Shown in pieces: positions 45,426 to 49,598 of a stretch of 51,993 bases of DNA (position 1 is the stretch's first letter; each line of letters opens with the position of its first letter). The position numbers and the translations under genes are program-made. The stretch lies in IMG/VR virus record IMGVR_UViG_2850796239_000012, one strand, 5' to 3'. A model generated the notes under the pieces. The model saw only the letters and a list, made by a program, of their open reading frames with translations, searched no databases and was not told where the DNA came from. This stretch comes from a virus (lineage: Duplodnaviria > Heunggongvirae > Uroviricota > Caudoviricetes).

Positions 45426-45707
45426 ATGAACCCTATGCTTGATTATTGTTTTACCTCTGCACCTCAGCAGACCATAACACACACCGGAATCAAAAAATTG
45501 TTATGGATAATCAAAAAAACCCTCCAGCAGAAAGGTGATCCCGATTTAATTCCCTGTGCTTATGGCCTGTGTGACAGACAAGTAAGCCCTGATAAGGCTT
45601 ACACTGCTGAACTTATTTACATGCACGGAACCATGATGAGGAAAAAGAAACGCAAATATTGTAGTGAAATCTGCGCCGAAAAAGACCAGATGGCACACGA
45701 ACTTTAA
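45426..45707 (+). CDS. Hypothetical small Cys-containing protein
   Basis: 93-aa ORF in the early-left operon. Confidence 0.3.
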   Translation: MNPMLDYCFTSAPQQTITHTGIKKLLWIIKKTLQQKGDPDLIPCAYGLCDRQVSPDKAYTAELIYMHGTMMRKKKRKYCSEICAEKDQMAHEL

Positions 45708-45781
45708 TTAACTGACTATTCGAAACTGAATTTATGCCAGCAATGGCAGGGATTCGCTCAACCTTAATTAAGGAGAAAAAC

Positions 45782-46027
45782 ATGAACACCAATTATGAAG
45801 CCACTGTTGCAACTACTGATAACATTGTTCACGAGGTTTACCTGGAAGGAAAGCATATTGGCTACGTAATTAAAACAGAAAATAAAGAAACCCCATTCAC
45901 TGTGGTTGATATCGACGGTCTATCAGGAAACTTTAAAACTCTTGTTGAAGGTGCCACAAAAATGTGCCTGGTTTACATCGGAAATAATCTGCCCGCAGAA
46001 AAAAAGCCGAATTTCTGGCAACTCTGA
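45782..46027 (+). CDS. Hypothetical protein
   Basis: 81 aa from internal Met with strong SD AAGGAG. Confidence 0.35.
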   Translation: MNTNYEATVATTDNIVHEVYLEGKHIGYVIKTENKETPFTVVDIDGLSGNFKTLVEGATKMCLVYIGNNLPAEKKPNFWQL

Positions 46028-46155
46028 TTGCAATGAAATTAAAAGGTGAAATCTGAAAAAAAGAAAGCCTGCACAGTGTGCAGGCCTGAGTGAAGAACCT
46101 GGGACATTTATTCATCACTCGCAGTAATTTTAATCTGAGTTGAGGTTAAAAAACA

Positions 46156-47982
46156 ATGAGCACAAAACCACTCTTCCTGTTACGGAAAGCGAAAAAATCA
46201 TCCGGTGAACCTGACGTCGTCCTGTGGGCAAGCGACGATTTTGAATCGACCAGCACCACTCTGGACTATCTGCTCGTTAAGTCAGGTAAAAAACTGAGCA
46301 ACTATTTTAAAGCTGTTGCCACAAATTTTCCTGTCGTTAATGACCTTCCCCCTGAAGGTGAGATCGATTTTACCTGGAGTGAACGCTATCAACTCAGCAA
46401 AGACTCCATGACATGGGAACTAAAACCGGGAGCAGCGCCAGACGACGTTCACCACCAGGATAATGCTCAAGAAACCAAAGAACTGGCGGGAGGCCAGGAA
46501 GAAAACGCGCAGGCAGACGCCCACGAGGATTGCCAGGATTGCGAAGTCTCTGTAGCCACTTTGCGGTTCACACAGCGTCTTCTGCACATTTTTACGTATG
46601 CTGCCGGGGATCGGAAATACCTGCATCATGCCACCCGTGAACAACGCAAACACATTACTGCTCTTGAGATGGATCAGGAAAACAGCTATGTCCAGAATCT
46701 GCTGTTGGCCATACGCGGCATGGCAGAACCGACAACTCTGGATAATGCCGCCCTGCTCCGCCTGACTGATGCAATTAAGGCAGTTTTCTCTATCACGAAA
46801 AAACATCAGCCCTATGAATTTAAGAATTTCATTTCAGCCTGGCTGGATACCGAACACATTGATCGCGGTCTTCTGACAAAAGAATGGCGAAAAGGGAATC
46901 GTGTTTCACGCATCACTCGCACGACTTCCGGTGCTAATGCTGGCGGCGGGAACCTCACCGATCGCGGCGAAGGTTTCGTCCACGATCTGACGTCACTGAC
47001 GCGCGATGTAGCCACTGGCGGGCTGGATTATTCCCGCGCCATCGTGGTTGCGTCCGTGAAAGAAGCACCAATTGGGATCGAGGTCATCCCCGCACACGTC
47101 ACTGAATATCTGAACAAAGTACTGACTGAAACCGATCATGCCAACCCTGATCCGGAAATCGTGGATATTGCCTGCGGTCGCTCCTCTGCCCCGATGCCGC
47201 AGCGAGTAACAGAAGAAGGAAAACAGGACGATGAAGAAAAACCACAACCATCTGGCGCAATGACAGATGAACAGGCAACGGCTGAAACAGTGGAACCGAA
47301 TGCAACTGAACATCATCAGAACACGCAGCCGCTGGATGCTCAGTCACAGGTAAATTCTGTTGATGCGAAATATCAGGAACTGCGGGCAGAACTCCATGAA
47401 GCCCGGAAAAACATTCCGCCCAAAAATCCTGTCGATGCAGACAAATTACTGGCTGCCTCTCGCGGAGAATTTGTTGAAGGGATTAGCGACCCGAATGATT
47501 CGAAATGGATTCCCGGTCATCATATCTCCTCAAATGAAGTCAAAAAAACGGAAAATGAAGTGCGACAGACTGAAGATAAACAGCACCAGAACAGCGAACC
47601 GGAGGAGGGAACACCCTGCAATCAGACTGGCGAGGATAACTGCCCTGACTGTGGCGCGGTGATGGGAGACGCAACTTATCAGGAAACTTTTGACGAAAAA
47701 AAACCAGATGAAGCACAGGAAGAAGAGCCGAAGAAAACGGAAAAAGCTGATGATTTGTTACCGGAGAACGCTGGCAGCGATCAGCATAATGATAGCAATA
47801 ATGAAACTGGCGAAGATGAACTCAACTGGAAAAAACAGGTGTTGATTGCGGCGGTTTACGGTTTATGTGCGAATCCTGCGTGCATAGCCTATGCGCCTGC
47901 AATCCCTGACATCGCAATGATGATTGCCAACAAGCTTGAAAATTTTGGAGTGACCAGTGATGAGCGCTTACCCGATTTTTGA
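46156..47982 (+). CDS. Large acidic protein of unknown function with Cys pairs and a hydrophobic C-terminal tail
   Basis: 608 aa; CQDCE and [13 protein letters not shown] motifs, Glu/Asp/Gln-rich low-complexity centre, C-terminal …[33 protein letters not shown]…; SD GAGG. Confidence 0.45.
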
Positions 47983-48256
47983 TCGTATTGAAGAAATGGC
48001 ATGGGCTCGCCACTACCAGCAGATCGTTCGTGAAGAAAAAGAAACGGAACTGGCGGACGACCTGGAAAAAGGTCTGCCTCAGCACCTGTTTGAATCGCTC
48101 TGCATCGACCATTTGCAACGCCACGGTGCCAATAAACAGGCAATCAGCCACGCATTTGATGATGATGTTGAGTTTCAGGAGCGCATGGCAGAACACATCC
48201 GGTACATGGCTGAAACCATTGCCCACCACCAGGTTGATATTGATTTGGAGGACTAA
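47957..48256 (+). CDS. Hypothetical acidic protein
   Basis: 99-aa ORF overlapping the end of the 608-aa gene. Confidence 0.3.
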
Positions 48257-48261
48257 AATCT

Positions 48262-49359
48262 ATGGCGCTTTTTCAACGAGCAATAAACACACAGGCCTAT
48301 CTAAAAGCAGGAATTATGGGGTTTGCTGGCGACGGCAAAACCTACACAGCAAGCGAACTGGCTATTGGTCTGGTAATGCTTATGCGGCAACGGGGAATTG
48401 AAGCTGGTAACCGCCCGGTAATGTTTCTGGACACAGAAACAGGCTCTGACTGGGTTAAACCCCGCTTTGATGCGGAAAATATCGAATTATTTACGGCAAA
48501 AACCCGCTCGTTTGTTGATCTGCTTGAAGCCATTAATGAAGCGGAAAGCAGCGGTTCCGTAATGATCATCGACTCCATCAGTCACTTCTGGACCGGATTA
48601 TGCGACGAGTATGCCAGACGCCGAAACCGTAAACGAGGACTGGAATTTTCAGACTGGGCGTGGCTCAAACAGGAGTGGCGACGCTTTACCGATCGATTTG
48701 TTAACAGTCAGGCGCACATTATTATGTGCGGGCGTGCAGGATATGAGTATGACTTTTTCGAAGGTGATGATGGCAAACGCCAGTTGGCAAAAACCGGTAT
48801 AAAAATGAAAGCAGAAACAGAAACCGGTTATGAACCCTCCATCCTGATCCAGATGGAGAAGCAAATGAACATAGAAACCGGTCAGGTGTGGCGCACCGCC
48901 AGAATACTAAAAGATCGCTCCACCCGTATTGATGGACAGGTATTTTCAAACCCAACATTTAAAAACTTTCTTCCTCATATCGAGTTTCTTAACCTGGGAG
49001 GTGAACACCTCGGCATCGATACCTCACGGGATAACAGTGAATTATTTGCCAACGACGGTACACCGACATGGCTAAAAGAAAAGCGTGCAAAAGAAATCGC
49101 ACTTGATGAAATTATCGAGTTGCTCAACAAGCACCATGGGGGCACCAGTAACGACGCCAAACGCGCAAAAGCTGATTTGCTGGAAAAAACATTCACCTCC
49201 CGCTCATGGGAAAGAATCAAAGGTATGGACTGGCCGACAATCAAAGCTGGTCGTAATGCACTATGGATTGAACTGGAAGGCGTTGAATATGCATTCCCGG
49301 ATCCACAAACACAAAACGAAACGCAACAAGCAGGATACGATGAGAATATTCCGGTGTAA
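48262..49359 (+). CDS. P-loop NTPase (RecA-fold; possible Sak4-like recombination/replication ATPase)
   Basis: 365 aa; Walker A GFAGDGKT, then …VMFLDTETG… and …VMIIDSISHFW… hydrophobic-Asp motifs; sits where lambdoid phages carry recombination genes. Confidence 0.45.
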   Translation: MALFQRAINTQAYLKAGIMGFAGDGKTYTASELAIGLVMLMRQRGIEAGNRPVMFLDTETGSDWVKPRFDAENIELFTAKTRSFVDLLEAINEAESSGSVMIIDSISHFWTGLCDEYARRRNRKRGLEFSDWAWLKQEWRRFTDRFVNSQAHIIMCGRAGYEYDFFEGDDGKRQLAKTGIKMKAETETGYEPSILIQMEKQMNIETGQVWRTARILKDRSTRIDGQVFSNPTFKNFLPHIEFLNLGGEHLGIDTSRDNSELFANDGTPTWLKEKRAKEIALDEIIELLNKHHGGTSNDAKRAKADLLEKTFTSRSWERIKGMDWPTIKAGRNALWIELEGVEYAFPDPQTQNETQQAGYDENIPV

Positions 49360-49403
49360 AACCAAGTGCATTTTGAACACGGTTTTTGAAAATATTAATG
49401 TAG

Positions 49404-49598
49404 GTGTTCATGTATAAAATTACAGCCACTATTGAAAAGGTAGGTGGTTCTCCTACCAGCTGGACAAGATATTCAAAATCTAAACTAACGAAATCAGAAT
49501 GCGAAAAAATGCTCTCAGGAAAAAAAGAAGCAGGCGTTTCCAGAGAGCAGAAAGTAAAACTGATAAATTTTAATTGCGAGAAACTTCTGTCCTCGTGA
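49404..49598 (+). CDS. Hypothetical small protein
   Basis: 64-aa ORF in the AT-rich stretch upstream of xis. Confidence 0.25.
   Translation: MFMYKITATIEKVGGSPTSWTRYSKSKLTKSECEKMLSGKKEAGVSREQKVKLINFNCEKLLSS

Follow-up and report, generated by a model that had tools for sequence, protein, structure and literature searches.

A probable recombination module pairing lambda-type Gam with a long AAA_24 ATPase in a Rac-like lambdoid prophage

The 51,993 nucleotides (nt) of the viral IMG/VR record IMGVR_UViG_2850796239_000012, hereafter called the window, were analysed with a focus on a cassette of three open reading frames (ORFs) encoding a RecE-like protein (recE'), a Gam protein and an ATPase. The cassette is part of the early-left operon in a Rac-like lambdoid prophage, which is of the Shigella/enteroinvasive Escherichia coli (EIEC) type and adjoins the host gene ybhA. 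It is probably a homologous-recombination (Rec) module consisting of Gam and a Rad51-like annealase without a phage exonuclease, plus a nuclease-less RecE as accessory protein; the recombinase role of the ATPase, taken by itself, is likely. Observed were the homology of Gam, of the RecE N-terminal region and of the AAA_24/RecA fold, the position of the module, and the linkage of its genes. The module was put together by module exchange. Thereby, a preliminary description of the same DNA is corrected, as the cassette now appears as a Rec module and not as a mystery defence island. The cassette comprises the following features:

46156..47982, + strand: recE', the RecE N-terminal region without the nuclease domain, 608 amino acids (aa); Pfam Exonuc_VIII
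47815..47982, + strand: hydrophobic C-terminal tail (residues 554-608) of recE', unrelated to RecE; unaligned to full-length RecE
47960..48256, + strand: gam, lambda-type RecBCD inhibitor by homology, 98 aa from ATG; Pfam Gam, phrog_259, GamS alignment
48262..49359, + strand: long AAA_24 ATPase (Sak4 superfamily, Rad51/RecA fold), putative recombinase, 365 aa; Pfam AAA_24

Organisation of the cassette

In the ORF list of the window, the three cassette ORFs are all located on the + strand and closely spaced (46156-47982, 47957/47960-48256 and 48262-49359), and their strong family matches identify each of them as a gene rather than a chance ORF. The last 8 codons of recE' run into the start of gam, an overlap of about 23 nt. 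The ATG of the ATPase gene follows 5 nt after the gam stop codon and is preceded by the Shine-Dalgarno sequence GGAGGA. In a terminator scan, the + strand was free of terminators between 46156 and 49598; sites resembling promoters were not commoner than in shuffled sequences. The scan for promoters and terminators therefore adds nothing beyond the picture of a co-directional, tightly packed operon.

The ATPase gene in the recombinase slot

From the repressor onwards, the early-left genes are DUF1391, Rha/Ash, ydaE and a racC-like gene; then come the cassette, DUF1187, xis and int, with host ybhA next to them. The preliminary description had placed the cassette in the early-left recombination position, and this agrees with the order between repressor and xis/int as well as with a sibling E. 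coli prophage (L002), in which bet-exo-ralR is found exactly there. The sibling has the order recE'-gam-bet-exo-ralR-DUF1187-xis-int and the window recE'-gam-ATPase-DUF1187-xis-int. Because the flanks are shared, the ATPase gene replaces bet-exo-ralR and thus occupies the recombinase slot, by which the earlier suggestion of an alternative recombination module is borne out. For comparison, the classical Rac-type locus reads recE-recT-ralR-DUF1187. The DUF1187 gene serves as the downstream homology flank common to the recET-type and bet-exo-type sibling prophages and follows ralR in L002 and L084. Also, the ultraviolet-induced Cronobacter phage phiES15 carries kil-gam-ATPase, with an ATPase 85% identical to that of the window, as its only recognisable Rec genes.

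For the co-occurrence analysis, which had been proposed along with the preliminary description, 71 IMG/VR viral loci encoding the ATPase were used with simple ORF calling. Lambda-type Gam was found in 44 of the 71 loci and lay at most 30 nt upstream of the ATPase gene in 42. These counts overstate the number of independent events, since near-identical Cronobacter prophages account for many of the Gam-linked loci. A second Gam-like family, phrog_1050, is encoded directly upstream in four further loci (L018-L020 and L074; about 5699-5983), so that a Gam or Gam-like gene stands directly 5' of the ATPase gene in 46 of the loci. A canonical single-stranded DNA-binding protein (SSB) is encoded in six loci, in five of them at most 30 nt downstream. 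The ATPase is thus coupled to Gam or a Gam-like protein in 46/71 loci or to a directly downstream SSB in 5/71. Homologues of Bet, Exo, RecT, HK620-type Sak4, Abc2 and SSB-2 were absent from all 71 loci. In 19 diverse ATPase loci, 148 neighbouring ORFs were scanned with Pfam; SSB was the most frequent family, and neither RecT, Erf, Rad52 nor DUF1071 was among the 25 listed of the 28 Pfam families matched. In the neighbourhood of distant ATPase members, a gene for an SbcC-like AAA_23 protein or an HNH endonuclease was detected downstream. The published neighbourhoods of sak4 genes have SSB downstream, a gam-like gene upstream and sometimes sbcC (PMC8093625), and the neighbourhoods of the ATPase genes are those reported for sak4.

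In L079-81, which encode 40%-identical ATPase members, a 445-aa SbcC-like AAA_23 protein is encoded downstream (L079:7137-8474). In L082, the ATPase gene is followed by one for a 146-aa protein (L082:7041-7481) ending in ...ESIEVPF; it has no Pfam match and is possibly a divergent SSB.

Family, motifs and fold of the ATPase

The ATPase matches Pfam AAA_24 (PF13479) with 52.5 bits (cutoff 27; E 7.5e-14). This model is used for the Sak4 family in the literature (PMC8093625), and Sak4 of phage HK620 itself scores 30 bits. Among the PHROG families, the best match is phrog_1366 (E 1e-79), followed by a weaker match to phrog_124, 'Sak4-like ssDNA annealing protein' (E 1e-8). At least 2050 homologues of about 365 aa were found, all named just 'AAA family ATPase', with 60-87% identity across Enterobacteriaceae, Pseudomonas and Burkholderiales, that is, across Gamma- and Betaproteobacteria. 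With short phage AAA_24 proteins, the identity is about 30% over the first ~200 residues, with E-values down to 1e-12.

The RecA-type core covers approximately residues 1-230. The elements that characterise the RecA/Rad51 core fold, namely Walker A, a Glu after strand 2, and Walker B, are all present. Walker A (GFAGDGKT, 48319-48342; G20-T27) is invariant in the family. Walker B (IIDS) is located at 48559-48576, with invariant I-D104-S105, and the family alignment contains a further invariant motif, D57-T-E59-T-G61, after strand 2. Invariance extends to three basic residues of a beta-hairpin (R211, K217 and R219) and to the flexible loop K181-S193 (48802-48840), which is the sole internal low-confidence segment of the AlphaFold2 model (predicted local distance difference test 85). 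By analogy to the RecA family, E59 would be the catalytic Glu, the basic hairpin would act in trans, and K181-S193 would correspond to an L2-like DNA-binding loop. A Foldseek search against viral models gave matches annotated as 'AAA domain', 'AAA-ATPase' and 'RecA-like recombinase'.

The core is followed by a family-specific helical C-terminal domain (residues 233-339; 48958-49278), for which a structural neighbour search yielded none that was informative. In an exhaustive HMMER scan of 1.84 billion representatives, 385 cluster representatives matched this domain, and nearly all full-length matches listed carry it at about residues 225-365 of proteins of 350-570 aa. AAA_24 was present in five of seven long matches checked, and the short matches look like fragments. 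The domain was thus seen only at this position in proteins of the ATPase family. A comparison with Bet by hhalign was negative, with only 4 columns aligned. In its architecture, the ATPase represents a new variant of the Sak4/AAA_24 kind, and a literature search found no publication characterising it.

The acidic tail of the ATPase ends in DENIPV. Of 117 tails of the family (49279-49356 in the window; homologues P0001-P0120), 43 contain an acidic [IVLM]-P motif, with a shuffle mean of 6.6; examples are DENIPV, DEDIPQ and DDDIPEDNKDAA, which resemble the SSB tip DDDIPF. A terminal -AA, similar to an ssrA/ClpX degron, was found in 44 of the 117 tails (shuffle mean 1.8). The ATPase of the window has the acidic motif and lacks the terminal -AA.

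The gam gene

The second cassette ORF encodes 99 aa from GTG (47957) or 98 aa from ATG (47960), and its product is acidic with an isoelectric point (pI) of 4.74. It matches the whole Pfam model PF06064 (E 8.1e-56; positions 1-97 of 98), belongs to phrog_259, and aligns end-to-end over residues 1-97 with the solved lambda GamS (5MBV/2UUZ; phmmer E 2.5e-50). Judged from these alignments, it is almost certainly lambda Gam. Lambda-type gam was detected in 3080 E. coli genomes in a survey of complete genomes. Lambda Gam occupies the DNA-entry site of host RecBCD, blocking the enzyme and shielding linear phage DNA.

With respect to operon position and a gene order starting with a Gam about 80% identical to GamS (an estimate from the phmmer alignment), the module resembles lambda Red (gam-bet-exo), and the sibling prophage carries recE'-gam-bet-exo within the same flanks. 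The window differs by having one RecA-fold ATPase in place of both Bet and Exo and no phage exonuclease. Bet is a Rad52-like annealase and Exo a 5'-3' exonuclease.

RecE without its nuclease

The preliminary description had reported the lengths of the ORFs, their acidity, the Cys motifs, the hydrophobic C-terminal tail and Walker A, all of which agree with the ORF list and the composition analysis. The 608-aa product of recE' has a pI of 4.77 with 108 Asp and Glu versus 63 Lys and Arg residues. Its Cys motifs are CQDCE at residues 126-130 and a second one at 488-500. The stretch ~321-560 is hydrophilic and rich in acidic residues to a strong degree, and residues 561-600 are hydrophobic with a mean Kyte-Doolittle value of +1.0. 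The earlier statement that none of the proteins is a recognisable Exo/Bet/Gam or RecET homologue proved wrong for two of the three, as Gam (PF06064, GamS) and the RecE N-terminal region (Exonuc_VIII) are both recognised.

The recE' product matches Pfam Exonuc_VIII (PF06630) with E 1.1e-66, and its match to the NCBIfam RecE equivalog ends at profile position 596 of 877 with 729.7 bits versus a cutoff of 1269. By BLASTP, residues 1-553 align in long near-identical blocks to residues 1-610 of the full 891-aa RecE, and then the alignment stops. The RecE nuclease domain, of the PD-(D/E)XK type, comprises residues 564-866 and its crystal structure exists (PMC11611040); thus, the homology of recE' to RecE ends at the nuclease-domain boundary. 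A search against the PDB gave zero sequence matches for recE', from which it follows that the RecE nuclease domain, with its solved structure, is missing. On the basis of its sequence, the 608-aa protein is nearly certain to be RecE minus the nuclease domain. No RecT or Bet homologue was found among the window ORFs, and the gene next to recE' is gam instead of recT.

In place of the nuclease domain stands a 55-aa hydrophobic tail (residues 554-608). Shigella phage 75/02 Stx has it in a RecE-like protein of 682 aa that lacks the nuclease and is also encoded directly 5' of gam, and it is conserved in the bet-exo sibling L002 too. Between recE' and the Stx-phage homologue the tail is ~80% conserved, whereas the N-terminal body is only 48% identical; within the same architecture of RecE N-region, tail and gam, this implies purifying selection. 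As the body of recE' is of the Rac RecE sequence type and differs from the Stx-phage version to this extent, recombination within the gene is indicated. The origin of the tail was searched for by tblastn against phages, which found nothing, probably owing to low-complexity filtering. A large protein search returned only fragments of 43-88 aa named 'exodeoxyribonuclease VIII', which were uninformative. The C-terminal 'LPDF' of recE' was considered as an SSB-like tip and rejected, since its codons overlap the first codons of gam and the ending is absent from the Stx-phage homologue.

It is possible, though rather doubtful, that recE' is a decaying recET remnant that was truncated when gam and its partner recombined in and that has no function of its own. 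Such decay would fit the label given by PGAP, a pseudogene described as 'incomplete; missing C-terminus', which speaks against a functional protein. It would likewise fit an in-frame deletion of 132 nt (44 aa) at 47016/47017, after residue 287, relative to the 99.7% identical locus of a twin genome and to full-length RecE. The loss of one Cys from the CxxC...CxxC arrangement of full RecE (CTAC...CPDC to PC...CPDC) and the shorter or insertion sequence (IS)-disrupted versions in several Shigella-type loci point in the same direction. However, both copies keep an open frame, of 608 aa in the window and of 652 aa in the twin genome, the architecture recurs in the sequenced Stx phage with a conservation that implies selection, and nuclease-less 'RecE-2' proteins are a recognised, recurrent class in lambdoid phages, to which no role has been assigned there (PMC12315714). 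Moreover, according to Fu et al. 2012 as cited in PMC11611040, the RecE N-terminal region, when present, enhances linear-linear recombination.

Comparison with further recombination systems

The cassette shares with the Sak4 modules of HK620, phi31 and 52A the AAA_24 membership, the Walker A and B motifs and Rad51-like fold of the ATPase, and the pairing of the ATPase gene with an anti-RecBCD gene. In Burkholderiales prophage relatives (L004-L006; ATPase 72-76% identical), the SSB gene overlaps the ATPase stop codon, which is the hallmark sak4-ssb arrangement (PMC5928155, PMC8093625). The window ATPase differs in its length of 365 aa versus 219-245 aa and in its acidic tail, and no significant similarity to HK620 Sak4 was found, whether pairwise or by profile. 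Furthermore, the window carries no phage SSB gene, and the partner is lambda Gam, versus Abc2 in HK620.

The near-identical blocks shared with RecE 1-610 and the flanking Rac genes ydaE, racC-like, DUF1187 and xis/int connect the window with Rac RecE/RecT. Unlike Rac, it lacks the nuclease domain, recT and ralR and has the unrelated 55-aa tail instead. With the RecE-2 proteins, such as that of the Stx phage, recE' has the architecture, the conserved tail and the position directly 5' of gam in common; it differs from the Stx-phage protein in its Rac-type N-terminal body and the 44-aa deletion. Among lambdoid Rec modules, a class with an anti-RecBCD protein and a strand-annealing protein but no nuclease has been described (PMC12315714). 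The window module is a variant of that class, pairing lambda Gam with a Rad51-type rather than a Rad52-type protein.

Proposed mechanism and alternative readings

By homology, Gam would block host RecBCD where DNA enters it and thereby protect linear phage DNA. The ATPase would act as the recombinase of the module, binding single-stranded DNA (ssDNA) in an ATP-dependent manner, probably as a filament, and annealing or pairing complementary strands. These activities are proposed because Sak4 of HK620 anneals in an ATP-dependent way and is stimulated by SSB (PMC5928155) and Sak4 of phage 52A forms Rad51-like filaments (PMC11846896). No SSB and no phage exonuclease were found among the ORFs of the 52-kb window, for which reason the ATPase would be expected to work with host SSB. 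The recE' product would be an accessory protein that supplies no exonuclease; in bet-exo phages, too, its gene stands before gam.

Several findings weigh against a recombinase role. The ATPase gave no sequence match to the PDB, neither as a single sequence nor with the family profile even at E 10, and its similarity to HK620 Sak4 was not significant by BLASTP (E 0.11) or by hhalign (probability 0.4%). Sak4 proteins were accepted only as core-only proteins of <290 aa by Lopes et al. 2010 (PMC2896510), a definition that excludes the window ATPase with its 365 aa, extra domain and tail. In 17 of the 71 loci, neither Gam nor SSB was encoded near the ATPase.

Instead of an annealase, the ATPase could be a mediator similar to Rad51 paralogs. 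It would then load host RecA or modulate it, or else remodel ssDNA coated with SSB, and Gam would divert ends from RecBCD into a RecA/RecFOR-type pathway. The enrichment of the SSB-tip-like motif in the tails suggests protein-protein docking and would suit such a role, as would the missing exonuclease. The published conclusion on HK620 Sak4, however, is that it does not count among the recombination mediator proteins (PMC5928155), and the ATPase gene sits in the bet-exo slot, as that of an annealase would. We consider a mediator function unlikely.

A function unrelated to recombination was weighed as well, in which the ATPase would be a moron for defence, anti-defence or exclusion, an NTPase that acts as effector or sensor and is encoded in the variable early-left region. 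RecA-fold NTPases, for example KaiC-like proteins, occur in defence systems, and PHROG 1366 has no assigned function. Also, the gene is rare in E. coli: of 5426 complete genomes, 10 carry it, each with up to 4 matching places, and the copies are 99.9-100% identical, which indicates recent horizontal spread. Against this, no PADLOC-DB 2.0 family matched any of six proteins at E <= 0.01, the ATPase gene shows tight linkage with gam or ssb in different bacterial orders and never stands alongside another annealase, and an identity of 60-87% across Gamma- and Betaproteobacteria is unlike that of fast-evolving defence genes. A moron of this kind is thus very unlikely. The defence cassette suggested in the preliminary description found no counterpart in PADLOC. 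As to the anti-defence function suggested there, the sole anti-host element is Gam, a known RecBCD inhibitor. Homology to a recombinase set such as Sak4 with its SSB partner had there been set against the reading as an uncharacterised cassette, and it was largely found, in the AAA_24 match and in the SSB genes beside relatives, with no SSB in the window itself.

Beyond the Rec module with a Sak4-like annealase, the long AAA_24 subfamily (phrog_1366) could, instead of being a minimal annealase, act as a Rad51-like recombinase that is self-sufficient, so that gam and the ATPase gene make up a complete, exonuclease-free, portable system, joined by an autonomous RecE accessory; as a whole, we regard this extended proposal as improbable. 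The helical C-terminal domain would then supply secondary DNA or partner binding absent from core-only Sak4, the acidic D-x-I-P tail would mimic the C-terminal tip of SSB to engage host SSB partners, and gam plus ATPase would be portable across Gamma- and Betaproteobacteria. The nuclease-less RecE with its conserved tail would, separately, work with whichever recombinase is encoded downstream.

Genomic context

The genes flanking the cassette are as follows:

45426..45707, + strand: YdaE-family small Cys-rich protein, 93 aa, Rac early-left gene (context); NCBIfam YdaE_coli E 6.5e-25, phrog_6751, annotated as YdaE in the twin genome
45734..46027, + strand: small Rac-type early protein, racC-like, 97-aa ORF; NCBIfam PRK09790 E 3.6e-41 (under the curated cutoff), phrog_4778 E 5e-42
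49404..49598, + strand: DUF1187 small protein; Pfam DUF1187 E 9e-36
49703-49927, + strand: xis; Pfam Exc E 1e-29, twin-genome annotation
49812-50939, + strand: lambda-type integrase; Pfam Arm-DNA-bind_1 and Phage_integrase, twin-genome annotation

The likely start of the 97-aa ORF is 45782, because the PRK09790 and phrog_4778 matches cover residues 17-94 and thus begin only at residue 17. Between this ORF and recE', a strong GC-rich hairpin of 10 bp with a T-run after it lies on the - strand (46065-46087); it is terminator-like for antisense transcription, and on the + strand an A-run precedes it. Just upstream of the cassette and its flanking small genes, a 282-aa protein with an Ash-family N-terminal domain and a Rha regulatory domain is encoded (44561-45409, + strand). 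Between the repressor region and this Rha/Ash gene, a 98-aa ORF of PHROG 8894 (43857-44153, - strand) runs opposite to the early-left operon and is a possible moron. At the other end, xis and int (49703..50939) form the end of the early-left operon, adjoining ybhA.

Farther away, four phage-borne tRNA genes are located at 34668-34978 (- strand), for Gly-TCC, Thr-TGT, Arg-TCT and a CAT anticodon, the last of which is assigned to Met by ARAGORN and to Ile by PGAP. At 2849-4674 (+ strand), a gene for an ipaH-type effector of the type III secretion system, with leucine-rich repeats and E3 ligase, is seemingly split into overlapping ORFs of 461 aa and 288 aa; at the corresponding place of the twin genome, an intact 'ipaHb' is annotated. 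On its two sides, a 224-aa IS ORF is present in inverted copies (1-675, - strand; 4999-5673, + strand), and beside it a 533-aa transposase is encoded (6037-7638, + strand) that by eye looks IS66-type. The ipaH-type gene with its IS flanks identifies the prophage as one of the Shigella/EIEC type, with its site between pgl and ybhA.

Significance

Gam is already known and recE' belongs to a noted but little-studied class, so that the cassette is largely ordinary apart from the ATPase subfamily. The recurrent position of a nuclease-less RecE before gam bears on the old question of what role the 600-residue N-terminal region of RecE plays. The part that deserves attention is the ATPase family, which is widespread, unusually conserved across bacterial orders, and replaces bet-exo behind gam. 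If the ATPase is an efficient annealase or recombinase that needs just Gam and host SSB, it could be a compact broad-host recombineering tool, and it would also extend the known architecture of the Sak4 family.

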